Numbered from the stretch's first letter, positions 4,870 to 34,157 are shown. The stretch: 37,579 nucleotides of DNA from an uncultured Methanosarcinales archaeon (GCA_964398115.1 CAYNLP010000001.1:1-37579), one strand, 5' to 3'. Notes: generated by a model not told the origin, from the sequence alone. Numbers and translations: made by a program.

Positions 4870-5004
4870 ATGAAAAGGATTAAAGAGGGTTGTCCTCTTT
4901 GTGGTTCGGATGTAGCAGGGGATGAAAAGATTAGGTTTTATTGTGACAGTTGTAATTTATTGTTTTCTAAGAGGGATTTAAGTATTAAAAGGGTTGAGGA
5001 TTAG
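4870..5004 (+). CDS. Small CPxCG-type zinc-finger protein, 44 aa (not in ORF track)
   Basis: Manual translation MKRIKEGCPLCGSDVAGDEKIRFYCDSCNLLFSKRDLSIKRVED*, with two CxxC pairs. Confidence 0.75.
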   Translation: MKRIKEGCPLCGSDVAGDEKIRFYCDSCNLLFSKRDLSIKRVED

Positions 5005-5065
5005 TTTTTATGTATACAAAACCTTTAAATACCACTAAGTTTTTTCTATTCTTAGGTGATAAAAG

Positions 5066-5500
5066 ATGAATGTCATTCAAAAGGCGTTACTATTAAGCGT
5101 TTTTTCATTGCTTATAGTAGGGTGTGCTCAACAGCAAAATCCTAGTGATAACAATATCAACTTGAGTAATATGACACAGAACGTGAGTGACGAGCCAGAT
5201 AATGAAAGTGAAGATCTTGGTATGAAAACAGTGGCAGTCACTCAAGATGAATGGAACCTTACACTGTCCGATAATCGCGTAGATGCCGGGATGTTAAGGT
5301 TTAAGATTGAAAACGCTGGTAATTACAGGCACGAATTCGCTATTAGAGGACCTGATAGGGAGTACATGCTTGAAGAAGGAATCCCAGCAGGAGAAAACAG
5401 CACTTACGAGGTTGAGTTGACAAAAGGTAATTACACAGTATACTGTACCATACCTACACACGCTCAAAAGGGTGAAGAAGCAGAGCTCAAGGTTCAATAA
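5066..5500 (+). CDS. Cupredoxin-domain lipoprotein
   Basis: Lipobox LIVG-C20; N.G.YRHEF; GNYTVYCTIPTH. SD GGTGA upstream. Confidence 0.8.
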   Translation: MNVIQKALLLSVFSLLIVGCAQQQNPSDNNINLSNMTQNVSDEPDNESEDLGMKTVAVTQDEWNLTLSDNRVDAGMLRFKIENAGNYRHEFAIRGPDREYMLEEGIPAGENSTYEVELTKGNYTVYCTIPTHAQKGEEAELKVQ

Positions 5501-5598
5501 ACCTTTATATTTTTCCTTTTTTCTCTTTAAACGTAACCTTTTAAAACTAACCTCTATTCAAGGATAAATGTACAAATACTTATAGGAGGTATTTATTT

Positions 5599-6093
5599 AT
5601 GGTAAAGAATAAACATGAGCATCAGAGAGTAGCTATGTTAGTGGATGTACAAAACTTGTATTATTCCGCTAAGAATTTGTATGAAAACAAGGTTAATTTC
5701 AACACCGTTATTGAAGAGGGTGTTCAAGGTCGTAAGCTTGTTCGTGCTATGGCTTACGCTATCAAAACTGATATTGATGAGGAGAGGAATTTTCATGAAG
5801 CCTTGGAAAACATTGGTTTTGAAGTTAAGACTAAAGATTTACAAACTTTTTATGGCGGTCAGAAGAAAGGAGATTGGGATGTTGGAATCGCCACTGATAT
5901 GATGAGGATGGCTAAGAAAGTTGACACGTTAATCCTAGTTTCTGGAGATGGTGATTTCACACCTGCTATAAAGTATGCTCAAGCTATGGGTTGCCGTGCT
6001 GAAGTCATGAGTTTTAAAAAGACTGCTAGCTCAAGTTTAATAGAAGAAGCTGATGATTTCGTGAGTATGGACAATGATAAGTTCCTGTTGTAG
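5599..6093 (+). CDS. NYN/LabA (DUF88) PIN-like domain protein
   Basis: VDVQNLY, KKGDWDVGIATD, LVSGDGDF, LIEEADDF motifs. GGAGGT SD. Confidence 0.92.
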   Translation: MVKNKHEHQRVAMLVDVQNLYYSAKNLYENKVNFNTVIEEGVQGRKLVRAMAYAIKTDIDEERNFHEALENIGFEVKTKDLQTFYGGQKKGDWDVGIATDMMRMAKKVDTLILVSGDGDFTPAIKYAQAMGCRAEVMSFKKTASSSLIEEADDFVSMDNDKFLL

Positions 6094-6105
6094 AGGTGGT
6101 TTTTA

Positions 6106-6414
6106 ATGCAAGATTTAAATGAAGGTAACTTTCAGGATAATGTTTCGGAGGGAAACGCAGTAGTGGATTTCTGGGCTCCTTGGTGTGGGCCTTGTAAAGT
6201 TTTAGGTCCTAAGTTTGAATCTGTTAGTAAACAGCATGATGACGTTAACTTTTTCAAGTTGAACGTGGATGAAGAAGCTGACCTTGCTCAGAGGTTTGGT
6301 GTTCGAAGCATTCCGACAATCGTTTTCTTTAAGGATGGAGAGCCTGAAGAACGTGTCACGGGTGCTATGAGTGAGGAGAAGCTTAATAGTTTGGTTGAAC
6401 AAGTTTACGGTTAA
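6106..6414 (+). CDS. trxA: Thioredoxin
   Basis: VDFWAPWCGPCK active site; GVRSIPT cis-Pro motif. Confidence 0.96.
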   Translation: MQDLNEGNFQDNVSEGNAVVDFWAPWCGPCKVLGPKFESVSKQHDDVNFFKLNVDEEADLAQRFGVRSIPTIVFFKDGEPEERVTGAMSEEKLNSLVEQVYG

Positions 6415-6446
6415 ATTTATATAAAATCTTTATATTTCTCTTTTTT

Positions 6447-7193
6447 ATGTTCGTTCACAATATTGATCCTGTTCTTTTGGAACTCGGCCCTTTCGAGATT
6501 AGGTATTATGGCTTAGTTTACGTAATTGGTTTCTTACTCGCGTATTATTTCTTGTATAAAGCAGCTGATAGTGAAAGGATTGATGGTTGGAGTGTTGAAG
6601 CCGCGGATGAGTTGATGATGTGGGAGATTATTGGTGGCGTTGTTGGTGGACGCCTTGGTTACTTCTTGTTTTATAATATTGAATATTTTTGGCAAGCACC
6701 GTTAGAAATTCTTAAGATATGGCAGGGTGGCATGAGTTTTCACGGCGGATTATTGGGTGTTATAATAGCGACGTATTGGTTTACTAGAAATCATGAGTAT
6801 AGTTTTATGAAAATCGCTGATGTTTTGACCTTGCCTGCGGCTTTTAGTTTGGGCTTGGGTAGGATTGCTAATTTTATTAATGGTGAAATCGTGGGTACTA
6901 AGACTGGTGTTCCTTGGTGTTTTGAATTTCCTGGTTTTGATGGTTGTAGGCATCCTGTACAGTTTTACCTTGCGGGTAAGAATTTCTTACTTGCCGGCTT
7001 GCTCTGGTTTTTGGACAGGAGGGATAGGAAGACAGGCTTTTTATTCTGGAATTTCATCTTTTGGTATGGTGTGGGACGTTTTGTGATAGATTTTTGGAGA
7101 GCGGATCCTACGTTTTTAGGTATTAGTATGGGACAGTATTTAAGCTTAGCCATGGTATTAATTGGAGGTTGGGTGTTATGGCAGGAGAGATGA
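6447..7193 (+). CDS. lgt: Prolipoprotein diacylglyceryl transferase (bacterial-type Lgt)
   Basis: IDPV...GPFEIRYYG, GGRLGY, IWQGGMSFHGG, GLGRIANFINGE.VG, RHPVQFY, YGVGRFVIDFWR, SMGQYLS. Multi-TM. Confidence 0.93.
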   Translation: MFVHNIDPVLLELGPFEIRYYGLVYVIGFLLAYYFLYKAADSERIDGWSVEAADELMMWEIIGGVVGGRLGYFLFYNIEYFWQAPLEILKIWQGGMSFHGGLLGVIIATYWFTRNHEYSFMKIADVLTLPAAFSLGLGRIANFINGEIVGTKTGVPWCFEFPGFDGCRHPVQFYLAGKNFLLAGLLWFLDRRDRKTGFLFWNFIFWYGVGRFVIDFWRADPTFLGISMGQYLSLAMVLIGGWVLWQER

Positions 7194-7879
7194 AGAAGTT
7201 CTTCATTTGTGCTAAGAATGAGAATAAGAAGGAGGAGTTGAAAGAGGATATGTTAGACGTTGGTTTCGTGTATGACGAAGACGATTTTGATTTCATCGTT
7301 AGCTTTGGTGGTGATGGTACTTACTTGTATGCGGAGAGGAAGTGGCCTGGTGTTCCAAAGCTTTTGGTTCGGGATAGCATGGTTTGTTTTAAGTGTCATG
7401 ATGAGCCTGTAAGTTTTGTTTTGGATAAGTTGAGTAGGGGAGAGTATGAAGTGGTTGAGGAGATGAAAGTTGAGGCTAGGATGGATAGTGATAGTATGAA
7501 GGCTGTGAATGACGTGGTGGTCCGGAATGCTGATGTCACCAGAGGTTTACGTTTTAGGGTTAAGGCGGGGGATAGGGAGAGTGATTTGTTGATTGGTGAT
7601 GGTGTGGTTGTGGCGACGCCTTTTGGAGCTACTGGTTATTACTATAGTGTTTGTAGAGAAACTTTTGAAGAAGGCATCGGCGTTGCTTTCAACAACACTA
7701 CTGAAGAGGTTGAGCCATGGGTGGTAGGTGAGGATGAAAGTATTGAGGTGGAAGTTGTGAGAGGTGTTGCTGAAGTCGCGGCGGATAACAATCCTGATGT
7801 TAGGACGGTTGAGGAGGGTCGTAAGATTGAGATTAGTAAGTGCAGGGAGAGTGCGAAGATTGTGACGCATGAGCATTAG
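7190..7879 (+). CDS. nadK: NAD(+) kinase family protein
   Basis: SFGGDGT, AVNDVVV, GDGVVVATPFGATGY motifs. Start at ATG 7190 overlapping the lgt stop. Confidence 0.9.
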   Translation: MKKFFICAKNENKKEELKEDMLDVGFVYDEDDFDFIVSFGGDGTYLYAERKWPGVPKLLVRDSMVCFKCHDEPVSFVLDKLSRGEYEVVEEMKVEARMDSDSMKAVNDVVVRNADVTRGLRFRVKAGDRESDLLIGDGVVVATPFGATGYYYSVCRETFEEGIGVAFNNTTEEVEPWVVGEDESIEVEVVRGVAEVAADNNPDVRTVEEGRKIEISKCRESAKIVTHEH

Positions 7880-7920
7880 CAAAAAGTTTTTATATTCCTC
7901 ACCACCCATTAGTTCTTTGT

Positions 7921-8568
7921 ATGGATCCGACTTTAATTGTGAATTTTAAGACTTATTCTGAAGCTACTGGCGAGAGTGCTCTTAAGTTGGCGAAAGTTTG
8001 CGATAGGGTTAGTAAGGTTGAAGATGCTGACATCCGGATTGCAGTTCAAAGTTGTGATTTGAGGATGATAGCAAGTGAGGTTGACATTCCTGTTTATGCT
8101 CAACACGTTGACGCTATAGAGCCTGGTAGTCATACTGGTTGGGTTTTGGCTGAAGCGGTTGAACAAGCGGGTGCGGATGGTACTTTGCTTAATCATAGTG
8201 AGCACACTTTGGGTATGGATCGGTTAGAAGAGACTATTGACCGGGTTAAAAGTTTGGGTTTGGATGTGGTTGTTTGTGCTAAAGATGCTGATGTTGGGAA
8301 GTCTGTTAGTAAGTTTGATCCTGATTTTGTCGCGGTTGAACCTCCGGAGCTCATTGGGGGTGATGTTAGTGTTAGTAGTGCGAAGCCTGAGTTGATTGAG
8401 CGAGCGGCTGACAAGGTGGATGGTCGTTTGCTGGTGGGCGCGGGTGTTAAGGATGGTGATGATGTTAAGAAGAGTTTGGAACTCGGCGCGGTTGGTATCT
8501 TAGTTGCTAGTGGTGTTTGCAAAGCCGGTGATGTTGAAGAAGCGGTTAAAGGTTTGGTAAGTGTTTAA
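7921..8568 (+). CDS. tpiA: Triosephosphate isomerase, archaeal type
   Basis: IVNFKTY, YAQHVD, LLNHSEH, AVEPPELIG, VGAGVK, LVASG. Confidence 0.96.
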   Translation: MDPTLIVNFKTYSEATGESALKLAKVCDRVSKVEDADIRIAVQSCDLRMIASEVDIPVYAQHVDAIEPGSHTGWVLAEAVEQAGADGTLLNHSEHTLGMDRLEETIDRVKSLGLDVVVCAKDADVGKSVSKFDPDFVAVEPPELIGGDVSVSSAKPELIERAADKVDGRLLVGAGVKDGDDVKKSLELGAVGILVASGVCKAGDVEEAVKGLVSV

Positions 8569-9080
8569 CGCACGTTTATCTGTACCGTTATGGGTTGATA
8601 GTATGTTTCTCCGTTGGTTGTGACGTTCATGTAGTAGATGTGACTTCCTGACTTTGTGTCTTGTGTGGTTCTGATCATGAATTTCTCTACCGTGCTTTCT
8701 CCCGCTGGTATCGTTACTTCTTTAGGTGTGGTTAGAATGTTTGGGGTGGATTGCATGCTTGAATCAGGAGGCGTGTTTCCTTTCATTAGTTTATAGTTGA
8801 AGGTGGTTTCCGTGTTTAACTCGTTTTTGATTCCTAGGTGAAAGATGGGGTTGTCTCCTCTTGAGATTGTGCGCACGTTTTCAGGAATTGTCACAGGATC
8901 GTTGGTAGAAAGTAATTGTTTGACTCTTTGCTTGTTTCTTTCACTTACTTGAGTGTTGAACTCTTCGGCTTTGTCTATTAGTTGTGTGAATATGGCTATG
9001 CCGAATCCTATCACCATTATCATTAGGATGAGGATTACTATGAAGTTGACGCTGAGTTGGAAGCCTTTCTTGTTCATCAT
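8565..9080 (-). CDS. Pilin-like protein with class III signal peptide
   Basis: Likely start at 9080: MMNKKG|FQLSVNFIVILILMIMVIGFGIAIF, then an amphipathic helix and a beta-rich head. ATGA overlap with the upstream gene. Confidence 0.7.
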   Translation of the reverse strand: MMNKKGFQLSVNFIVILILMIMVIGFGIAIFTQLIDKAEEFNTQVSERNKQRVKQLLSTNDPVTIPENVRTISRGDNPIFHLGIKNELNTETTFNYKLMKGNTPPDSSMQSTPNILTTPKEVTIPAGESTVEKFMIRTTQDTKSGSHIYYMNVTTNGETYYQPITVQINVR

Positions 9081-10365: not shown

Positions 10366-10538
10366 TGGGTCGTCATAAGACTAAAGGACAGAAGAAAAGA
10401 TTGGCTAAGAAGAATCGTCAGACTAGATGGGCTCCTTTTTGGACCGTGCCTAAAAAGTATGGTGAAGGAAGGCAGGTTCATCCTGGCAGGCACACTGTTA
10501 TGAAGAGGCATTGGAGAAGAGGAAGTACGGATGAGTGA
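10365..10538 (+). CDS. rpl39e: 50S ribosomal protein L39e, 57 aa (not in ORF track)
   Basis: Manual translation MGRHKTKGQKKRLAKKNRQTRWAPFWTVPKKYGEGRQVHPGRHTVMKRHWRRGSTDE*. Canonical position before L31e. Confidence 0.9.
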   Translation: MGRHKTKGQKKRLAKKNRQTRWAPFWTVPKKYGEGRQVHPGRHTVMKRHWRRGSTDE

Positions 10539-10540
10539 AA

Positions 10541-11161
10541 ATGGCACAGTTAGAAAGAACTTATAACGTTCCTTTGAGGAAAGGTTTTCAAAACACTCCT
10601 AGACATAAGAGGGCGAAGAAAGCCATGACGGTGTTGAAAGAATTCTTACAAAAGCATATGAAAGCTGATGAGGTCAAGATCGGTCAGTTGTTGAATAAAA
10701 AGATTTGGGAGAATGGTATTAAGAACCCGCCTCATCACGTTGAGGTTAAGGCTGTTAAGAGAGATGACGGCGTTGTTGAGGCAGAGCTTGAAGGACACAC
10801 CTACACTGGCACTGTAAGTCCTGAACCACTTGAGGAGGGTGGTGAAGGTGGATTGGCTGAAAGGCTTGGCGGTGCTATGGGTGCCGACGCCGGCAAGGCG
10901 GAAGAAGTTGAAGAAAAATTGGCTGAACAAACGGAGGAAGGATTGCAAGAAGTTGAAAGCTTTGAAGACGAAGAAGGTGACGAAACAGAGGGTAGTGAAG
11001 AAGTTTCTGAAAAAGAGGGGGAGGTTCCTTCTGAAAGTAAAGTTCGTGGTATGACTAAGGATGAAATTAAGGAGTATGCTAGTGAAGAATTTGGTGTTGA
11101 ACTAAGTACGAATGACTTAAAGGATGAAATGATTGAGCAGTTCTTTGAAGAAATCAAATAA
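10541..11161 (+). CDS. rpl31e: 50S ribosomal protein L31e with long acidic C-terminal extension
   Basis: ERTYNVPLR, PRHKRAKKAM..LKEFLQKHMK, LNKKIWENGIKNPP; followed by ~115 aa of E-rich tail. Confidence 0.93.
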   Translation: MAQLERTYNVPLRKGFQNTPRHKRAKKAMTVLKEFLQKHMKADEVKIGQLLNKKIWENGIKNPPHHVEVKAVKRDDGVVEAELEGHTYTGTVSPEPLEEGGEGGLAERLGGAMGADAGKAEEVEEKLAEQTEEGLQEVESFEDEEGDETEGSEEVSEKEGEVPSESKVRGMTKDEIKEYASEEFGVELSTNDLKDEMIEQFFEEIK

Positions 11162-15431: not shown

Positions 15432-17024
15432 ATGAGTCGAGAAAGTCTGGAAAACAAAGTTCGAAAAACTTTACGGAAAACAACACAACTAGTCCTACCC
15501 GCATTAACCGCTGCAACAATAGCCTGTGGAGGTGGTGGAGACAATTGTCAGGCAAACCCGACAGCTCCGGGATGTAATAACAACGGTGGAGGCGGAAATC
15601 CAAGTGTTGAAAGCGTAGAAACCTCTCCAAACCAACTATCAGACATAGAAACCAATCAAGACCAAGACTACTCGGGCGAAAGCAAAGCAACACTATCAGA
15701 CGGCAGCAAGGAAGATCCAGACAGCACAATAACATTCCTAACAACAAACGACGAAAGAAACAAAGTTGACAAATTCGGACAACAACAAAACTGGCAAGGA
15801 ACAATACCCGCCAACATGATCAAAGAAGGAGAAAACTGCCTCGAAGCAGTCGCACACGCCAGCAGCGAAAGAGACACCGCACAAGCATGCTTCAACGCCC
15901 AACAACCCAGTCCAGAACTAACCTATACGTTATCTCCCGACAGTATAGCCGAGGGTGATACGGCTAGGCATGAAGTAAGCGCGACAGACGATGCACAAGT
16001 AGACAGCGTATTCATAGACACAAACGGAGACGGAACATTCAACATACGAATAAAAGGAAGCAAAGCAGACACCACCCTAACTTATGATGAACCAGGAAAC
16101 CTAGAAACAACGGCAAAAGCACAAGACAACCAAGGAGCAGAAAGCAAAGAAAAAACCCAAACACTACAAATAACCGACACTCCAGAACTAACCGTGAACG
16201 TAAAAGGAGCAAGCCCCCAACCAGGAACAGGCCTGGTAGACATAGTAGACGCCTTAGTTATTGCCCAGAAAAACGGCGAAGCAGATACCGCCAGAACTAA
16301 TACCAGCGGACAAGCCATACTAAAAAACCTAGAAGACGGAGAATACACGCTGGTAGTACGGGATGAAACAAATCCTGACACGATCGGAACCTGGTACGAC
16401 ATAGCAAACCCAAACAACCCAGTAACCATACAAGTAAACGAAGACACCAACCACACCGTAGGCCTATTCCCACACGTACCACTAGCACCAGGAGACACCG
16501 CATACCAAAACAACCTAGACTGGTTCAACAAAGTAGTAGGAAACTTATATGTAGTTGCAAGAGGTATGCCTAACAACGGAAAAGATCCTTACCGAATTTG
16601 GATACACCCAGATAGCCTAGACACACAAGAAGAAGCAGACTCAGTAAAAAAAGGAATACTAACATGGAATGGCCTTAATGACGAATATGATTATGCTAGG
16701 TTCGTCGATGATTCTATCGATAGCGACTACACACTACTAATGACTGATGAAAGTGCAACTGATCGAAGCGAAAGAAGAATTAAAGTTAATGAAACATTAG
16801 ATTTGAAAACTATTTTAAAACACGGAGCCCATGAATTCAGCCACGTATTAATGAATCAAAAAGAAGAAAGAAGTTTACAAGACTTATACTGTTCACAATC
16901 AGGCCCAACCTGTCCACCTGGAAAAGCCACTAACCTGGAACTCGGAATTTTTACATCCGCCAACATTTTGAAACAAAACTTCGGAGAAAACTGGGACATG
17001 GATAAATACAGCCAAAACAACTAG
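15432..17024 (+). CDS. Lipoprotein with Ig/PKD-like domains and C-terminal HEXXH zinc-peptidase-like domain
   Basis: Lipobox ATIA-C32-GGGG; DTNGDG...TLTYDEPG...AQDNQGA (PKD-like); TARTNTSGQA..L..GEYTL; HEFSH at 16830-16844. Confidence 0.75.
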   Translation: MSRESLENKVRKTLRKTTQLVLPALTAATIACGGGGDNCQANPTAPGCNNNGGGGNPSVESVETSPNQLSDIETNQDQDYSGESKATLSDGSKEDPDSTITFLTTNDERNKVDKFGQQQNWQGTIPANMIKEGENCLEAVAHASSERDTAQACFNAQQPSPELTYTLSPDSIAEGDTARHEVSATDDAQVDSVFIDTNGDGTFNIRIKGSKADTTLTYDEPGNLETTAKAQDNQGAESKEKTQTLQITDTPELTVNVKGASPQPGTGLVDIVDALVIAQKNGEADTARTNTSGQAILKNLEDGEYTLVVRDETNPDTIGTWYDIANPNNPVTIQVNEDTNHTVGLFPHVPLAPGDTAYQNNLDWFNKVVGNLYVVARGMPNNGKDPYRIWIHPDSLDTQEEADSVKKGILTWNGLNDEYDYARFVDDSIDSDYTLLMTDESATDRSERRIKVNETLDLKTILKHGAHEFSHVLMNQKEERSLQDLYCSQSGPTCPPGKATNLELGIFTSANILKQNFGENWDMDKYSQNN

Positions 17025-18562
17025 TTCTGATACGGCTCAATAGATAAATACTCACCATAATCTACTCCATCATAAGTTGTCCTATAAACACAAGCCTGAT
17101 CCATGAAATCCACACAATCACCACTCGGCCCAGCCTCCTCCAACCACCAAGGACCATCAAGTTGATGAGGAGGCCAACTCTCACAAGGACCATACACATC
17201 ATCACTACTGTAGCATACTCCTCCCCAATTAGGGTCACAATCACCTGGATCATTTCCATCCCATTGGAAATCGCCTGGACAACTATTTATACACTCATAA
17301 TTTCCTGTATCTTGCTTGTATTCGCACATCCCGCTGCAACAGTCGCTGTTTGAGTTGCAAGTATCTCCTGCTGCTTTGCAAACGTCTACTTCTTGTGTAG
17401 CGTCGTCTCCAGTAACCCCTACAAGAGGGTCTACGGTATCTATTTGAGAGTAGTATATCCAAGTACCGACTTCATCTAAAGTTATTGCACATCCGTCTGT
17501 TGCGCTTCCGCTTGTTGCACTAGAACCGTCATCTGCACATGGTTGTGTGTCTCCACTAGGAGAGATGAGTTGAACATACCAATCTACGCCATCATCTATT
17601 TCATTCCAAACGTAATCAAACTCTACTCTAGGATCTTCATCATAATATGCTGTGTTAGGATTTCCACTTGAAGCAGTGGTTTGCAGGTTACAAGGACAAT
17701 CATCATCATTACAATCTGTAGCGCCATTATTATCATTATCTATATCATCCCCACAAGCAGATTCTGAATCAGAGAAGCAATAAATAGTTACAGCACCACT
17801 GTCATCAGTATCATTTTCTTCCGTTATCACTTGTCCACAATGATCTGAAAGGTTATTACTTAACGCTTGTTGATTATCCCATGCCACATAATCTGAACTT
17901 CTGGCACATTCGTTAAAAGTACAACTACCAGGACAATCGTTTTCATGTAGATACTCAGTTATTGGATTTACAGAACGTCCTTTTCCATGAGTGGTGACTC
18001 CACTCGCCCAGTTCTCCAACTCAGGAAGGTATAGGACGCCACGAGTAGGATAACGAGGATCACCCTCATAATTATAACATCCACCACTAGATGCTTCTTC
18101 TCCTCTATCAATACACACATCATTTGCTATATTGGCTAATTCACCACAGCAATAATTATCACTCGGTGGAGCTTGATTATCATTAGTGGTATAACGACAA
18201 TCAGGATAATCATAACACACGTTAGATTGACAATATTGTCCTTCATCACAATCACTATCATCCACGCATTCTACACATTCACCAGAGCTTTCGTCACAAA
18301 CATTTGGACAGTCTGTATCATCTTGGCAATCAGCTACACACATGTTACTGTCACAGTGCTCATCACTAGCACAATCATCATCGTTTGTGCATTCAACACA
18401 ACACCCATTATAACAAAAATTATCACCTGAACAATCACCGTCACCACTACAAGAAAGACAAGCAAAGTGAACTGACGAGGATACTGGTTGCGAAGAAAGT
18501 GATAATACAAAGGTGAAGGACAAAAGTACCAAGATGAATGTTAAAACTGGTTTTAATTTCAT
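17021..18562 (-). CDS. Secreted Cys-rich surface protein
   Basis: Start MKLKPV plus signal peptide; repeated CVECxxDxDC units; CGDDIDNDNNGATDCNDDDC; CxxNSDCCSGxC. Confidence 0.78.
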   Translation of the reverse strand: MKLKPVLTFILVLLSFTFVLSLSSQPVSSSVHFACLSCSGDGDCSGDNFCYNGCCVECTNDDDCASDEHCDSNMCVADCQDDTDCPNVCDESSGECVECVDDSDCDEGQYCQSNVCYDYPDCRYTTNDNQAPPSDNYCCGELANIANDVCIDRGEEASSGGCYNYEGDPRYPTRGVLYLPELENWASGVTTHGKGRSVNPITEYLHENDCPGSCTFNECARSSDYVAWDNQQALSNNLSDHCGQVITEENDTDDSGAVTIYCFSDSESACGDDIDNDNNGATDCNDDDCPCNLQTTASSGNPNTAYYDEDPRVEFDYVWNEIDDGVDWYVQLISPSGDTQPCADDGSSATSGSATDGCAITLDEVGTWIYYSQIDTVDPLVGVTGDDATQEVDVCKAAGDTCNSNSDCCSGMCEYKQDTGNYECINSCPGDFQWDGNDPGDCDPNWGGVCYSSDDVYGPCESWPPHQLDGPWWLEEAGPSGDCVDFMDQACVYRTTYDGVDYGEYLSIEPYQN

Positions 18563-18662
18563 TAATAAAATTACATCTAAGAGATGATTTATAAACATTT
18601 CCATTGCGAAAATATTTGATAATCATAAACTTTATTACTCAAAGAAATTAAAGACAAAGCTG

Positions 18663-19387: not shown

Positions 19388-20827
19388 ATGAAGGAATTAA
19401 GTCAAAGAGTAGAAAACCTGTATAAAACCACTAAAGACAGGGTAAAATCAAAATCTAAACCAATCAGACATACCCTGATGCCTGTCTTAGCAACAGGAGC
19501 TATAGCACTAGGAGCATGCGGCGGTGGGGACAACTGTCAAACAAACCCGACAGCGCCTGAATGCAACGACGGACAAACCAACCAAAAACCAAGGGTTAGT
19601 TTAATAGCAGACCCAACCCAAGGCGTGAAACCGCTAGACGTGAACGTGAACGTAGACGGCAGCGACCCAGACGGCAACGTAAAAGAATACAAACTAAGCA
19701 CAGACCAAGACACAAGCGACTACGAAATCACAACGCAAAACCCAATCGACACCACCCTAACATTCCAAGACACAACAGAACTAAAAGCACAAACAGAAGA
19801 TGACCAAGGAGAAACCAGCAATGCTACAACTCAAAAAATACAACCACGAAAACCAAAACCAACCTACCTACGAGCGGGACAAATAATAGACTCAGAGACA
19901 GGACAAGGAAAAAAAGGTAAACTCATAGTATATGACGCAGCAGATACAATACCAGTAGACACAATCGAATCCGACACTGCTGGCAATATTCAAGAAACAA
20001 AAATAAGCGACAAAGAAAATGAAAACATAATAATACAAGCCGGAATATTCCAAGAAGACTCACTAGAAAGCTATATATCAACATACACAGCCAACACAGA
20101 CAACGGAGGAACAATAGGACCATCAAAATACCAAGCAATACCCTTTAAGAACGAAAAAGGAAGCTTAGAAAGTTTTAGAACCACTCCTCAAGAATTCCTA
20201 GAACACCTACAAAGACTAAAACAACATGGAGGATCTGACAGTGCAAAAGTGGAAAAAATACCTGTAAGCGAAGTAAAAACCACTTGTATACTGAGTGAAA
20301 ATCCTGAAGTCGGTGATAATGCCCAATTTTCCGAGGTGCAGCAGGACACTTTAGTAAAACCATGGAAAAATCAAAGCGATATACCTATATATCTTAGTGG
20401 AGAACAACCTGATACAGTAATAACAGGAGACTGTTCTGATTTATACAGTATAGATTCTAATAATGGAAAAATAGACGTAGAAAAAGTAGGCAGTATGATT
20501 GTAGTCCCAGACACTACCCTACCTGCGGTAGGTTCAAATAGTGGTCGCGATCCAGATAATGACGGAGATGATGATTCAGGTGTAATCAGATTGCATCCGG
20601 AATATATAACAATCGAGAGACTTGCCATGGTAGAAATACATGAAGCAGGTCATTTATCTTCAGACTGGGTTCACTCTAACGTCTATGAGAATGAAAAATG
20701 CAATATGCAAACCCCTGTTAAGGCCAGACACCCTACTTATGTTGATTGGAAAGCTTCAGACGCGATGTACAAGTTTGAAGATGGTCAGTGGATAGAAGAT
20801 ATTGCAAGATTAAACTTCTTTAACTAA
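19388..20827 (+). CDS. Lipoprotein with PKD-like domain and metzincin-like peptidase domain; paralog of 15432..17024
   Basis: Lipobox ALGA-C44-GGG; NQKP...ADPTQGVKPLDV...SDPDG (PKD); HEAGHLSSDWVH (HEXXH at 20639-20653) followed by CNM (possible Met-turn). Confidence 0.78.
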   Translation: MKELSQRVENLYKTTKDRVKSKSKPIRHTLMPVLATGAIALGACGGGDNCQTNPTAPECNDGQTNQKPRVSLIADPTQGVKPLDVNVNVDGSDPDGNVKEYKLSTDQDTSDYEITTQNPIDTTLTFQDTTELKAQTEDDQGETSNATTQKIQPRKPKPTYLRAGQIIDSETGQGKKGKLIVYDAADTIPVDTIESDTAGNIQETKISDKENENIIIQAGIFQEDSLESYISTYTANTDNGGTIGPSKYQAIPFKNEKGSLESFRTTPQEFLEHLQRLKQHGGSDSAKVEKIPVSEVKTTCILSENPEVGDNAQFSEVQQDTLVKPWKNQSDIPIYLSGEQPDTVITGDCSDLYSIDSNNGKIDVEKVGSMIVVPDTTLPAVGSNSGRDPDNDGDDDSGVIRLHPEYITIERLAMVEIHEAGHLSSDWVHSNVYENEKCNMQTPVKARHPTYVDWKASDAMYKFEDGQWIEDIARLNFFN

Positions 20828-22202: not shown

Positions 22203-22601
22203 ATGGAAATAAAGCAAAAAATCCTAAAGAAGCTAAAAGAACTACCACACTTTGACAAACTACAATTCATCTACCTCTACGGAAGTCAAGCAACCGGAAA
22301 AACCAGCAAAAAATCAGACATAGACATCTGCCTCCACTACGACATCCAAGATGAAAAAACCCTGAGAAAACTAGGCTACAAAATACAGGGCAACTTCACC
22401 CAAAAATATGACATAGCAATGTTCCAACAACTACCACTACCCGTACAGAGAGAAGTGTTCAAAGGAAAACCATTATACCTCAAAGACAAAAACTCAACCA
22501 TCGACCTAGCCCTAGAAACGTCGAGAAAATACAAAGACTTTCAAAAAAGACACGAATACATACTCAACCACAAAGCCGGTACGGGAGAAGCAGAGTTATG
22601 A
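22203..22601 (+). CDS. Minimal nucleotidyltransferase (MNT) antitoxin
   Basis: YLYGSQATGKTSKKSDIDI (GS-x10-DxD); DIAMFQQLPL; VFKGKPLY. Confidence 0.9.
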   Translation: MEIKQKILKKLKELPHFDKLQFIYLYGSQATGKTSKKSDIDICLHYDIQDEKTLRKLGYKIQGNFTQKYDIAMFQQLPLPVQREVFKGKPLYLKDKNSTIDLALETSRKYKDFQKRHEYILNHKAGTGEAEL

Positions 22602-22768: not shown

Positions 22769-23179
22769 ATGTTATCAGAAAGTAAGATAACCGAGTTACA
22801 GAAAGTGTTTGAAAAACACGACGAAGTCCTCTTCGCATACTTATTCGGAAGTGTAGCCAAGAACGAGGAAGGACCGTTAAGCGATGTTGACATAGCCGTG
22901 TACTTAGACTGTGAAAAAAACCAAGTATTTGATCTCAAATTAGAACTCAACAGTCAAATACCTATAATGGACAAGGAATTCGATCTGGTAGTGTTAAACG
23001 AAGCAAAACTTTCAATGCAACACGAAATCATAAACGGGAAAGTTATATACTGCAAAGATAATGATAAGAGGGTGGAAGTCGAAACAAGTATAATGAATCG
23101 ATATTTAGACATGAAACCTTTCTATCAAGAATACGCGCAGAAAAACTTGGAAAAAACGGCGAGGGAAGGACTGACATGA
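22769..23179 (+). CDS. mntA: MNT antitoxin (MntA-like, type VII TA)
   Basis: AYLFGSVAKNEEGPLSDVDIAVY; DLVVLNEA; EIINGKVIY; RYLDMKP. Confidence 0.9.
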   Translation: MLSESKITELQKVFEKHDEVLFAYLFGSVAKNEEGPLSDVDIAVYLDCEKNQVFDLKLELNSQIPIMDKEFDLVVLNEAKLSMQHEIINGKVIYCKDNDKRVEVETSIMNRYLDMKPFYQEYAQKNLEKTAREGLT

Positions 23180-23598
23180 AAGAAAAACTGCAAGAAAAAA
23201 TTGCTGACTTAAAAAAATATCAGGAAAAACTAGAGAAATACGCGGCTTACGACAAAGAGGAAATAACAAGCAATGAGGAAACACAAGCTGCGGTAGAAAG
23301 ATACCTAAACTTAGCGATAGAAATAGTAATTCAAATAGGAAAGATGATTATATCCAATGAAGAACTGGAAAAACCTGACACTTACCAAGATGTTATAAAA
23401 AAACTTGGACAGGAAGAAATCTTACCTAAAGGATTTGCGGAGAGATTCGCCCCGGCAACTGGTTTAAGGAACCTATTAATCCATAGATATGGCGAGATAG
23501 ACATAAACAAAGTTATAGAAACATTGAAAAACAATGTGGAAGACTTCAACACTTTCTCCAAACACGTCAGCAAATACGCGGCCAATCTAGAACAATAA
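23176..23598 (+). CDS. hepT: HEPN toxin (DUF86/HepT-like RNase)
   Basis: AVERYL..AIE, PDTY, GLRNLLIHRYGEID (Rx4H followed by Tyr). ATGA overlap with MNT. Confidence 0.92.
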   Translation: MKEKLQEKIADLKKYQEKLEKYAAYDKEEITSNEETQAAVERYLNLAIEIVIQIGKMIISNEELEKPDTYQDVIKKLGQEEILPKGFAERFAPATGLRNLLIHRYGEIDINKVIETLKNNVEDFNTFSKHVSKYAANLEQ

Positions 23599-29163: not shown

Positions 29164-30387
29164 ATGGAAGAAAAAACGCAAGAACAATGGGCAAGCCTCA
29201 TAGTAGGAATGAGGAAAAAACTAGAAATGAGTCAAGCCGAATTAGCAGAGTGTATAGGTATTTGCAGACAAGGTATAAGCCGGTATGAATGTTTTCAGAG
29301 AAAACCAAATATTGATTCCAGAAAGAAAATATCGGAGTTTGTCAATAAGAAAAACTTAGATTTCAATCGACTTATGAAGAAAGGTAAACATCATATCGAA
29401 GATTATAAATCTAGACAACAAGTTGAAACTGCTAATCTAGAACACAGTTCAGAATTGGCCGAACTAATAGGGGTAATATTAGGAGATGGAGAAATACACC
29501 CAGATGGTAATGTCAGGATAAGTTTCGACCCAAATAAAGAACATTATTACATAACACAACGTTTATTCTTCCTGATAAATAAAATCCTAGATGTGAAAAT
29601 AACTTTTGAAAGTTACAAAAGACTTTCTTTCTACGACATATCATTTACTAGATATCTTGAAGAAGAATGTAATCTTACACCTGGTAATAAATTTAAGAAC
29701 GGATGGAAAATACCTAAGTGGTGCTTTAAAGATAAAAAATATCTTACCTCAATTCTCAGAGGATTATTTGATACGGATGGATATATTGCTTATTACGATG
29801 GTTCAGTCACAGTAATGATGGGAAGATTTTCAGATAAATGCGAAAATCTAGTAAGAAGTATAACCAAAGGCTTCAGCTGTCTCCAATTAAATTATGTGTG
29901 CAAACACACAAAAGATGGAAGATACAGGATTCGGATACAGAACAAGCTAAACTTAATAAGATTCTTTGAACTGATAGGATCAAGTAATCTGAAACATATA
30001 ATTAGATTTTTACTTTGGAGAATCTGCAGTTATGAAGCAAAAATTGAGAAAGAAGGTTTAAAAAATTTAATAAAGAGATTAAATTCCAAAATAAACATTG
30101 AAATAAGGGCTATAAACATACCTTTTAAGTGGAATATAGAACAATCTAATTTTATAGAATACTTGAAAGAAGATATTATGATAAAAACTGGTCAAAAAAT
30201 CCGAAACGCTTTTAAATGGAACGAGATTCTGCCAAAAATGTTAGATACTGAGACAATATCTCAGGTATCCAAAGATTTAAACATTAACAAGAGAAGTGTA
30301 AGAAAGTGGAGAGGAGGAAAAAGAAACCCCTCTCCAAGATATATGCCTTATTTGAAGGCGATTGCTAAAGAAAAAGGATTGATATGA
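29164..30387 (+). CDS. XRE-HTH + double LAGLIDADG endonuclease-like + HTH protein
   Basis: RKKLEMSQAELAECIGICRQGISRYE (XRE); ELAELIGVILGDG and LRGLFDTDG (two LAGLIDADG helices); SQVSKDLNINKRSVRKWRGGKRNP (C-terminal HTH). Confidence 0.85.
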   Translation: MEEKTQEQWASLIVGMRKKLEMSQAELAECIGICRQGISRYECFQRKPNIDSRKKISEFVNKKNLDFNRLMKKGKHHIEDYKSRQQVETANLEHSSELAELIGVILGDGEIHPDGNVRISFDPNKEHYYITQRLFFLINKILDVKITFESYKRLSFYDISFTRYLEEECNLTPGNKFKNGWKIPKWCFKDKKYLTSILRGLFDTDGYIAYYDGSVTVMMGRFSDKCENLVRSITKGFSCLQLNYVCKHTKDGRYRIRIQNKLNLIRFFELIGSSNLKHIIRFLLWRICSYEAKIEKEGLKNLIKRLNSKINIEIRAINIPFKWNIEQSNFIEYLKEDIMIKTGQKIRNAFKWNEILPKMLDTETISQVSKDLNINKRSVRKWRGGKRNPSPRYMPYLKAIAKEKGLI

Positions 30388-31676: not shown

Positions 31677-31751
<75 letters not shown>

Positions 31752-31843: not shown

Positions 31844-33100
31844 ATGGATATACACGCAAAAGAAGAAAGAGTACAAACTCAAAGGACGAAGCTAAAAGAA
31901 AGCGAAGAAGTACCAAAAGAAACAAAGAAGCTATACCAAAATTTCTGGAAAGAACATACAACTCAACACGACCAAAGACAATTAAGTCCCCTTACAGAAG
32001 AGAAGTACCTTAAAGCTATAAGAGGCATTTACGAAAAAGGATTTATAGACAAACCACTCGATACCTTAACCCTTTCTGATATGAAAACCCTGATTAATGA
32101 GTTGAAACAAAGCGATTACGCCGATAGTACAATCAAGTATAACTATATTAGACCACTTAAGAAATTCTACAGACGTTTCAAGAAAGATAAAAGAGATGTG
32201 TATGAGAGTGATAAAGAATTGCGTAGTGCTATAGAATACTTACTTGAGTATAGTTTCTCCACTAACGGCGATAAAAATGTAACTGATGAGGATATACTAA
32301 CAAAGAAAGAAGTAAAGAAGATATTAGAGAATACATATAATGAACGTGATAAAGCTTTTATCATGTTAGCTTGTGAAAGTGGCGCAAGGATCGGCGCATT
32401 ACTTAACGTGAAGATTGGAGATATTGATAAAGAAACGTGGCAACACGGTTGGGTTATCAAGTTTACAGAAACAAAAACAGAAACTAGCGAGAGAGAAGCC
32501 CACATAAAACGTAGTATTCCATATCTAGAGAATTGGTTACAAAACCACCCTGATAGTGAGAAAAATAAGGATAGTTACTTGTTTACCAAACTTGATGAGA
32601 ATGAGGGGCTTAGTTATAGGGTTGGTAACTATATTTGTAAGAGAGCAGCGAAACGTGCTGATATAGATAAAAACGTAACTCCTCACATGTTTAGGCGGAC
32701 GGCTGCGACTTGGTTGTATCAAGACGGTTGGGATATTACAGAGATTAAGGACTTTATAGGTTGGTCTAGAAGTAGCGATATACCTGTACTTAGGTATATT
32801 CAGAAACGGCAGAATAGTAAAGAAGCTGTAGAAAGGCATTATGGACTAGCAGAAAAAGAAGAAGAGAAAGAAAATATTATGGAGAATAAAACGTGCTTGG
32901 TTTGTGGCGAAACTAATGAAGCTACTAGAAAAGAGTGTGTTAATTGTATGCAACCACTTAATCCAGAAGAAGCTAAGAAAGAGAAAGATATAGTTGAGCA
33001 ATTATTAGATAATCCAGAGAAGTTAATCAAGTTAAAACAAGCTATGAAAGAGTTTGATTTAGATGAGCTTAAAGAGGAGAAAAAGAGGCGTGAACAATAG
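31844..33100 (+). CDS. Tyrosine recombinase/integrase with C-terminal zinc ribbon
   Basis: ESGARIG (R), ETKT (K), PHMFRR (HxxR), IGW, LRY (Y); CLVC...CVNC. Confidence 0.95.
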   Translation: MDIHAKEERVQTQRTKLKESEEVPKETKKLYQNFWKEHTTQHDQRQLSPLTEEKYLKAIRGIYEKGFIDKPLDTLTLSDMKTLINELKQSDYADSTIKYNYIRPLKKFYRRFKKDKRDVYESDKELRSAIEYLLEYSFSTNGDKNVTDEDILTKKEVKKILENTYNERDKAFIMLACESGARIGALLNVKIGDIDKETWQHGWVIKFTETKTETSEREAHIKRSIPYLENWLQNHPDSEKNKDSYLFTKLDENEGLSYRVGNYICKRAAKRADIDKNVTPHMFRRTAATWLYQDGWDITEIKDFIGWSRSSDIPVLRYIQKRQNSKEAVERHYGLAEKEEEKENIMENKTCLVCGETNEATRKECVNCMQPLNPEEAKKEKDIVEQLLDNPEKLIKLKQAMKEFDLDELKEEKKRREQ

Positions 33101-33284: not shown

Positions 33285-34157
33285 ATGCCAGTTCAAGAAG
33301 TTGATGAAAAAAGTGAAACGGAGAGATTGCAAAAACTCGCCGAGAAAATAGAATATAAAAGAAATGGTAATAGAGCGCGACAACTAGCGAACGTAATAAC
33401 CGACGCATACCGAGAAAATCCCGAAGAATTAACACAATACTTCGACCACGACAACGAGTTCATCCAAGGACTCGCCACCACTGCATATGCCCAAATAACA
33501 AGAGACTTCGAACCCCTCCAAAACAGCAAATACGGAGGATGGGGGATAACACTAAAAGACTCACCCCGCCACCTAGAACTTAGCCAAAGGCAAGGAAGAT
33601 TCGCGAAACTATCAGGAACAGCACTTCTAGGCTCCAAGAACAGTGGTCAGGCACTCTGGTGGTCTAAAAACAGTGATTATGCACTCCTGAATTCTGAGAA
33701 TAAGGATGATGCACTACAGTATTCTGAGAACAGTGGAAAGGCACTCCAGCGTTCTGAAAACAGGAATCGTGCACTTAAGTATTCTGAGAACAGTGGAAAG
33801 GCACTCCAGCGTTCTGAGAATAAGGATGAGACACTCTGGTGGTCTAAAAACAGTGGTCAGGCACTCGGGAATTCTGAAAACCAAGATTATACACTCTGGA
33901 ATTCTGAGAACAGTGGAAAGGCACTCTGGCTAGCTGAAAACAGTGATGATACACTCCAGCATTCTGAGAACACAGATCGGGCGCTTTGGGCGTCAGTGAA
34001 CAGTGGTGGTGCACTCCAGCATTCTAAGAACAAGGATGAGACACTCTGGCGAGCTGAGAAACGTGGTCGGGCACTCCTAAAATCTGAGAATCATGATGAT
34101 GCACTCAAAGATTCTTCCTCAACACTTTACAATAAAGTGATGAATTTAATTACCTAA
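33285..34157 (+). CDS. Decapeptide-repeat protein
   Basis: Helical N-terminal ~110 aa, then 16+ repeats of [AT]LxxS[EK]Nxxx. Confidence 0.8.
   Translation: MPVQEVDEKSETERLQKLAEKIEYKRNGNRARQLANVITDAYRENPEELTQYFDHDNEFIQGLATTAYAQITRDFEPLQNSKYGGWGITLKDSPRHLELSQRQGRFAKLSGTALLGSKNSGQALWWSKNSDYALLNSENKDDALQYSENSGKALQRSENRNRALKYSENSGKALQRSENKDETLWWSKNSGQALGNSENQDYTLWNSENSGKALWLAENSDDTLQHSENTDRALWASVNSGGALQHSKNKDETLWRAEKRGRALLKSENHDDALKDSSSTLYNKVMNLIT
33621..34115 (+). repeat. 30-bp coding tandem repeat, 16 full units plus one partial
   Basis: Units begin at 33621, 33651 ... 34101, with consensus ~RCACTCnnnnRTTCTGAGAACAGTGRnnnn. Confidence 0.92.

Follow-up and report, generated by a model that had tools for sequence, protein, structure and literature searches.

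An intact bacterial-type prolipoprotein diacylglyceryl transferase in a DPANN-type archaeal genome, with a partner LspA and candidate substrates

The lgt gene and its surroundings

The DNA analysed here (the window) is a stretch of 37,579 nucleotides at the start of an 87-kb contig, in a genome (G000) of 1.0 Mb and 67 contigs that is 91% complete and 0.64% contaminated. It carries an lgt homologue and three genes for candidate substrates of the encoded enzyme:

6447..7193, + strand: lgt, prolipoprotein diacylglyceryl transferase homologue, 248 aa, 7-TM, ATG start
5066..5500, + strand: candidate substrate, cupredoxin-like, 144 aa, with a signal peptide and the strict lipobox LLIVG-C20 (IVGC)
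15432..17024, + strand: candidate substrate, 530-aa secreted protein, with the relaxed lipobox TAATIA-C32 and then GGGGDNC
19388..20827, + strand: candidate substrate, 479 aa, with a long charged N-region and the relaxed lipobox IALGA-C44, then GGGDNC

A preliminary description of this DNA had proposed an intact bacterial-type Lgt in an archaeal genome, and profile matches, fold and residues all bear this out for what is a DPANN-type genome. The ORF at 6447-7193 matched the Pfam family LGT (PF01790), its sole Pfam match, over profile positions 1-239 of 240 (E 8.7e-70; 235 bits for a cut-off of 24.9), as well as the NCBIfam equivalog TIGR00544 'lgt' (182 bits; cut-off 118.9). A phmmer search against PDB sequences found E. 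coli Lgt alone (5azb/5azc, E 1.2e-39). The AlphaFold2 model, built from a 40-sequence alignment, reached a mean pLDDT of 93.9 and a pTM of 0.89, and in a Foldseek search of the PDB it matched nothing but 5azb at E<=0.001 (E 2.7e-16, TMq 0.80, 32% identity).

Residue equivalences were established in a MAFFT alignment of E. coli K-12 Lgt (L013:5163-6038, minus strand), the window protein and the 119 homologues that matched it best. E. coli Y26, H103, R143, N146, E151, G154, Y201, Y235 and R239 correspond to Y21, H99, R139, N142, E147, G150, Y174, Y207 and R211 of the window protein, and E243 corresponds to D215; the alignment thereby confirmed the earlier assignment of seven of these equivalents (Y26, H103, R143, N146, E151, G154 and R239) and the reading of E243 as D. 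The HGGL motif occupies window residues 99-102 and the Lgt signature GRIANFINGEIVG residues 138-150; written as G138-RIANFINGEIVG-150, the latter is the equivalent of the E. coli G142-G154 signature, with R143, N146, E151 and G154. Conservation at these positions is close to complete among 120 archaeal-type Lgts (the window's own included): Y26, N146, G154 and R239 are each found in 120/120, H103 and R143 in 119/120, and E151 in 118/120.

The archaeal housekeeping context claimed for lgt was also confirmed. Two RNase PH-type exosome subunits, a ProRS with the archaeal C-terminal domain, an Rpb4-like protein and DUF655 are encoded in the window, together with S19e, L31e, L15e, L21e, L11, Spt5/NusG and FtsZ. 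The L31e ORF (10535-11161) has 208 aa, with the domain only at residues 8-76, and the L11 ORF (30394-31176) has 260 aa, with domains at 7-137; both may have long C-terminal extensions or be over-extended ORFs. A 407-aa protein encoded at 29164-30387 combines an N-terminal HTH_3 with a LAGLIDADG_3 domain. Codon usage agrees with a style common to lgt and its neighbours: in codon fit among 773 genes lgt lies at the 12th percentile, the NAD-kinase-like nadK at the 13th and tpiA at the 8th, and the GC3 of lgt is 0.39 for a genome median of 0.365.

Of the coupling of lgt to nadK proposed earlier, the overlap between the two ORFs is real (7169 vs 7193), and a conserved meaning is absent: none of 10 relatives' loci has a NAD kinase adjoining lgt, and the overlap is for this reason a local accident. 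No conserved operon surrounds lgt either, as neighbours differ across all 10 relatives' loci (NAC, an RPA-type protein and a HerA-type helicase are among them). Among the public runs listed, positions 5000-8600 of the window are represented only in two DNA sediment-metagenome runs from one study and in no RNA run. The public contigs of these two runs cover the lgt region, with neither joints nor loose ends, and one spans the lgt/NAD-kinase junction. This support for the integrity of the locus is weak, because one of the two runs may be the source sample.

Other features of the window lie further downstream. Two Polbeta/MNT-type nucleotidyltransferase genes are found at 22203-22601 and 22769-23179, and a HepT-like RNase gene (23176-23598) overlaps the latter; these two look like an MNT-HepT toxin-antitoxin pair. 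A tyrosine recombinase (Phage_integrase, 418 aa, 31844-33100) directly follows tRNA-Thr (31677-31751), and the ORFs from there to the window end gave no Pfam matches. One of them (33285-34157) encodes a 10-residue repeat protein without a Pfam family and contains a tandem array at 33573-34112, with a 30-nt period and 12 registers reported. GC drops to 0.32-0.33 at 35-37 kb. Integrase and downstream ORFs may form an integrated element; a search of the window for an att-like repeat of the tRNA-Thr end found none.

Candidate lipoprotein substrates

We searched the 1255 called ORFs of G000 for lipoboxes, asking for K/R in the N-region, a hydrophobic uncharged stretch, and [LVI][ASTVI][GAS] followed by any residue X, all inside the first 40 residues. 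A strict lipobox, with Cys as X, was found in 25 ORFs, or in 27 candidates if internal starts were allowed. Cys makes up 1.0% of all residues in G000, yet it is the commonest residue at this +1 position (25, vs 21 for L and 11 each for A and V). Candidate N-termini resemble those of classical bacterial lipoproteins (e.g. ...LLILAAC-GQQ). Applied to two further genomes of the class, the filter returned Cys in 13 of 126 matches for the closed genome G138, which has both Lgt and LspA, and in 1 of 37 for the closed genome G089, which has neither; with one negative genome only, this contrast is suggestive.

The candidate substrates announced for this DNA do exist, one strict and two relaxed in the window, and 25 strict genome-wide (the window's own included), and of the three lipobox proteins first described in the window only that at 5066 is of the strict kind (IVGC, Cys20). 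The proteins at 15432 (ATIAC, Cys32) and 19388 (LGAC, Cys44) fail the strict filter, with T at -3 and G at -2 respectively, and fit only a relaxed pattern modelled on the PROSITE rule. The first of these two has weak PKD and CarboxypepD_reg matches, under curated cut-offs, and the second no Pfam family. They are apparent paralogues, sharing C-GGG(G)DNCQ(A/T)NPTAP(G/E)CN directly after the putative lipobox Cys, and between their genes, on the opposite strand, lies one for a 527-aa Cys-rich membrane protein (17021-18604).

The 5066..5500 protein matched Cupredoxin_1 (E 1.7e-5) at 25.2 bits, just below the curated cut-off of 27. A Pfam scan of 17 of the 27 candidates added two further cupredoxins, an FKBP isomerase, a dienelactone hydrolase, a TPR protein and a Big_9 protein, while 8 of the 17 had no match at E<=0.001. 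The three cupredoxin-like strict-lipobox proteins of G000 (C5:49010-49507, C7:23643-24371 and 5066-5500 in the window) recall halocyanin, which is the classical blue copper protein with a lipobox in archaea.

Partner enzymes

The preliminary description had called for a search of the genome for LspA and Lnt. The former is present and intact, as the only LspA encoded in G000:

G000:C46:56-535: LspA, 159 aa, PF01252 E 5e-32, phmmer match to 6ryo with E 6.9e-16

Both catalytic Asp motifs (GNLTDR and FNVADS) are visible in its translation, and its gene adjoins a 117-aa eIF-1A-type gene, an RDD protein and an S49 signal-peptide-peptidase-like gene. Lnt (TIGR00546) was absent from all five genomes searched, G000 and four closed relatives. 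We took AliA/AliB to be DUF63 (PF01889, arCOG02177), as the family is labelled in an alignment supplementing Hong et al. In G000 as a whole, nothing matched DUF63 at E<=1; the same search gave matches in the controls H. volcanii, M. jannaschii and M. acetivorans. Placing Lgt and AliA/B in one phylogeny, another analysis proposed at the outset, was unfeasible because the published HHpred probability between them is only 29% (Hong et al. 2025, PMC12462473).

Distribution and origin of the archaeal Lgt

PF01790 was found in 38 of 41 relatives (spanning 40 genera) and in 184 of 201 genomes of the phylum, namely 148/154 of the same order and 36/47 of other orders of the class; closed single-contig genomes are among the carriers (G018, G027, G059, G217 and G138). 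LspA (PF01252) likewise occurs in 184/201. Given as raw counts, since the 201 genomes are kin, both enzymes co-occur in 177, Lgt is alone in 7, LspA is alone in 7, and neither is present in 10, all of them in other orders of the class. DUF63 was detected in 4/201, weakly in G089 and strongly in G115, G118 and G206, and all four are among the 10 genomes without Lgt and LspA. In six high-completeness genomes of the same class, neither Lgt, LspA nor DUF63 was found (G053, G167 (f79), G066, G111, G132 and G212 (f83)). Lgt/LspA and AliA are mutually exclusive across the phylum genomes searched. Rows of the supplement to Hong et al. 2025 (PMC12462473) agree with this pattern: in each of two Woesearchaeota assemblies, 12 of the 42 secreted proteins are predicted lipoproteins and the AliA/AliB counts are 0/0, and a 'Nanoarchaeota archaeon' has 19 among 60, again with zeros for AliA/AliB. 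That the pair and AliA never occur together in the genomes searched suggests non-orthologous displacement.

Of 8000 proteins scored in a homologue search, 7861 reached E<=1e-10. The top 120 of these are 46-65% identical to the window Lgt (its own protein aside); those that bear a name are called Woesearchaeota, Nanoarchaeota, DPANN or 'archaeon', with the exceptions of P0077, a 'Bacteroidota bacterium', and P0031, a 'Euryarchaeota archaeon'. A scan of species-representative genomes gave, among the best 80 of 599 stretches, 6 archaeal-labelled ones and 74 bacterial ones at 38-45% identity. In a tree of 104 rows (IQ-TREE quick search, LG+C20), 29 archaeal-type Lgts separated from 75 bacterial ones with an SH-aLRT of 99, and both P0077 and a 'Methanosarcinales' MAG row fell among the 29. 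The split, now 30 vs 75, stayed when the Lgt of genome G138 was added (from another order; a 191-aa partial sequence), with a FastTree support of 95. Judged by these sequences, the archaeal Lgts form one clade relative to the 75 bacterial sequences sampled, a biased set of closest matches only: Pseudomonadota, Nitrospirota, Thermodesulfobacteriota and a few others, including one Actinomycetota row. A bacterial donor of lgt is not identifiable from the best 80 of 599 stretches, because a sample of closest matches leaves out phyla such as Firmicutes and CPR, and Bacteroidota among others. From the spread of Lgt and LspA and the single archaeal clade it follows, therefore, that lgt is an old, vertically kept trait of Woesearchaeota-type archaea.

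A proposed lipoprotein pathway

The explanation that we favour for the whole of these observations is a working Lgt and LspA pathway of bacterial ancestry, acting on scavenged lipid and standing in place of AliA/AliB, to which we give a probability of about 0.85. The Lgt of the window would most likely be part of such a functional bacterial-type Lgt/Lsp pathway, and we infer the following order of steps. Once a pre-lipoprotein has been exported by Sec, Lgt would take the glyceryl-lipid part from a membrane lipid with a phosphoglycerol head group and attach it to the lipobox Cys thiol. Its substrates would be the about 25 predicted pre-lipoproteins, including the three cupredoxin-like ones, the FKBP isomerase and the dienelactone-type hydrolase. 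LspA, encoded on contig C46, would then cleave the signal peptide ahead of the modified Cys, and with Lnt absent the mature lipoprotein would lack Lnt-dependent N-acylation. The pair would have been gained from bacteria before the Woesearchaeota-type lineages diversified, would have been inherited vertically since, and would occupy the place that AliA/AliB has in other archaea. Counted against a working pair are the 14 of 201 genomes with one enzyme alone.

Lipid genes and the donor lipid

Targeted six-frame family searches of G000 and the four closed relatives found, as had been suspected, a genome without recognisable glycerolipid synthesis genes. GGGPS, UbiA above cut-off, CarS and CdsA were each absent from all five genomes; a CDP-alcohol phosphatidyltransferase was present in 2/5 and a PlsC-type acyltransferase in 1/5, G000 being negative for both. 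Neither PlsY, PlsC nor CdsA was found in G000, and PlsY had one convincing match across the 41 relatives. Absences in the 91%-complete G000 alone are weak, and it is the four closed relatives that carry the argument. Partial GGGPS matches in the 41 relatives (<=25 bits, to the C-terminal part of the model) were not read as GGGPS. Because recognisable synthesis genes are absent, the donor lipid of Lgt would have to be scavenged.

To ask which lipid this could be, we compared 136 archaeal with 75 bacterial Lgt rows (E. coli numbering). One column separates the clades cleanly, W25 (Y in 124/136 archaeal rows, W in 75/75 bacterial ones). Three further positions of the cavity or the H-bond network, E243, Y235 and G138, vary among the archaea and hardly or not at all among the 75 sampled bacteria: E243 (E in 75/75 sampled bacteria) appears as D in 67 archaeal rows, T in 27, N in 26 and E in 13; Y235 as Y in 77, M in 28, F in 10 and T in 8; and G138 as A in 35, F in 30, I in 17 and G in 14, with S in the window. 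In E. coli Lgt the changes E243A/Q/R, Y235F/L/S and G138I/V are inactivating; E243, part of a buried H-bond network, has no E243D among its mutants named there (Mao et al. 2016). The same structural account has Y26 and the M100 amide contacting the sn-2 ester (Mao et al. 2016), and among the archaeal Lgts Y26 is kept in 136/136 and M100 in 110/136. Variation at E243, Y235, G138 and W25 would fit a remodelled donor pocket, and the archaeal pocket may work differently, or some members may be impaired. We did not count this variation for ether lipids, because R143 and R239 alone are near-invariant family-wide (authors' reply, Hong et al. review file).

Two donors come into question, at roughly even odds between an ether and an ester lipid. 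The first, archaetidylglycerol scavenged from an archaeal host, is an archaeal ether lipid whose chances we put only just short of even. It would yield a diphytanylglyceryl-type thioether as in haloarchaea, and a bacterial-type Lgt would have had to adapt to glycerol of the opposite configuration. The known hosts of cultured DPANN are archaea, which speaks for this donor. So do the four pocket positions that are changed or relaxed in the archaeal clade, and the diphytanylglyceryl group borne by haloarchaeal lipoproteins (mBio 2026). Against it, the clean discrimination is limited to a single column (W25->Y), the contacts to the sn-2 ester are kept, the pocket variation is not specific evidence given what is near-invariant in the family, and the archaeal lipid genes GGGPS, UbiA and CarS are absent.

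The second candidate is bacterial-type diacyl phosphatidylglycerol from bacterial hosts, prey or the environment, a possibility that we consider slightly less likely than the first and that would mean a membrane holding at least some ester lipid. Here the identity of 38-45% to the Lgts of Nitrospira, Proteobacteria and others (among the best 80 of 599 stretches) and the kept PG-contacting residues are in favour. A gene with an SLT lytic murein transglycosylase domain was found in G000 (C9:13693-13923, minus strand, E 3.7e-9) and in two of the four closed relatives, thus in 3/5 genomes searched, and murein-binding proteins, with possibly bacterial hosts, have been proposed for these lineages (Castelle et al. 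2021, PMC8204110); together they are a hint toward ester lipids. SLT domains are nevertheless weak evidence of host identity, and the absence of PlsY, PlsC and CdsA from G000 also counts against an ester donor. A more far-reaching version, that Lgt and LspA were kept since the membranes contain diacyl phosphatidylglycerol scavenged from bacterial partners, and that they displaced an ancestral AliA/AliB, seems to us rather unlikely; it would imply a cross-domain symbiosis and a mixed or ester-lipid archaeal membrane.

Repurposing and contamination

An Lgt-fold protein could instead have been repurposed, e.g. as a lipid hydrolase or as a transferase on non-lipobox targets, or be a decaying relic. 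The archaeal changes at E243, Y235 and G138 match substitutions that inactivate the E. coli enzyme, which speaks for this reading. We nonetheless consider it improbable, given the co-occurrence with LspA in 177/201 genomes, the enrichment of lipobox Cys in genomes with both enzymes, the near-invariance of the nucleophile-side HGGL motif and of the R143/R239 pair, and the absence of stops or frameshifts among the lgt matches listed. Bacterial contamination, or a mis-binned or chimeric contig, a concern raised with the first description and prompted by a family that is otherwise bacterial and by the close homologue P0077 with its bacterial name, can be set aside almost entirely in view of the archaeal informational genes on the 87-kb contig, the codon use that lgt has in common with its neighbours, the presence of Lgt in 184/201 phylum genomes, closed ones among them, the single archaeal clade with P0077 inside it and the public contigs without joints or loose ends, the phyletic spread being a stronger argument than the contigs.

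Discussion

The reading of a functional Lgt/LspA pathway on scavenged lipid has to be set beside what has been written on archaeal lipoproteins. Archaea were said to have no Lgt or Lsp homologues in an article in FEMS Microbiol Rev (2018), such homologues were denied again in Nat Commun (Hong et al. 2025, PMC12462473), and a passage in mBio (2026) that reports a RefSeq search with PF01790 states Lgt to be 'absent from archaea'. Contrary to these papers, a whole archaeal class-level lineage carries both Lgt and Lsp. The presence of lgt is not a discovery in itself, and any novelty is functional, as had been anticipated: NCBI/JGI records already name close homologues (e.g. 'prolipoprotein diacylglyceryl transferase [Candidatus Woesearchaeota archaeon]'), and Table S3 of Castelle et al. 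2021 (PMC8204110) gives, in module 15, fam06994 LGT for 83% and fam04729 Peptidase_A8 (signal peptidase II) for 82.7% of 196 Woesearchaeota genomes. The word 'lipoprotein' has a count of 0 in the main text of that paper, which treats module 15 only for sigma-70. In the literature searched, with subscription journals outside its scope, we found no text discussing Lgt or LspA in DPANN and no discussion of the complementary distribution of Lgt/LspA and AliA.

The points of interest are the donor lipid and this complementary distribution. Lgt/LspA without AliA accounts for at least some of the AliA 'gaps' in DPANN noted by Hong et al. As for the donor, the Lgt of the window lends itself to a direct test of G1P-based ether lipids as donors for a bacterial-type Lgt, and the donor class would tell the membrane type, hence the host type, of these uncultured archaea.

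Three known systems bear comparison. The lgt of the window belongs to the Woesearchaeota Lgt/LspA set of Castelle et al. 2021 (PMC8204110), whose main text and Table S3, unlike the present analysis, make no link to lipobox substrates, AliA/AliB or a donor lipid. AliA/AliB of Haloferax volcanii (arCOG02177) presumably does the same job as Lgt, i.e. lipidation of the archaeal lipobox Cys, and has two conserved arginines that are, to its authors, reminiscent of Lgt R143/R239 (Hong et al. 2025, PMC12462473). From E. coli Lgt, the phosphatidylglycerol:prolipoprotein diacylglyceryl transferase of PDB 5AZB/5AZC, the window Lgt differs in its host, an archaeon without lipid synthesis genes and without Lnt; in length (248 vs 291 aa); in the stretch from G154 to Y201, which has 24 residues vs 47 in E. 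coli and ~25 in most sampled bacteria; and in the substitutions E243->D, G138->S, W25->Y and E202->L. It has in common with the E. coli enzyme the fold (TMq 0.80), the HGGL motif with the GR..NF.NGE..G signature, and the residues Y26, H103, R143, N146, E151, G154, Y201, Y235, R239 and R246, all of them retained.
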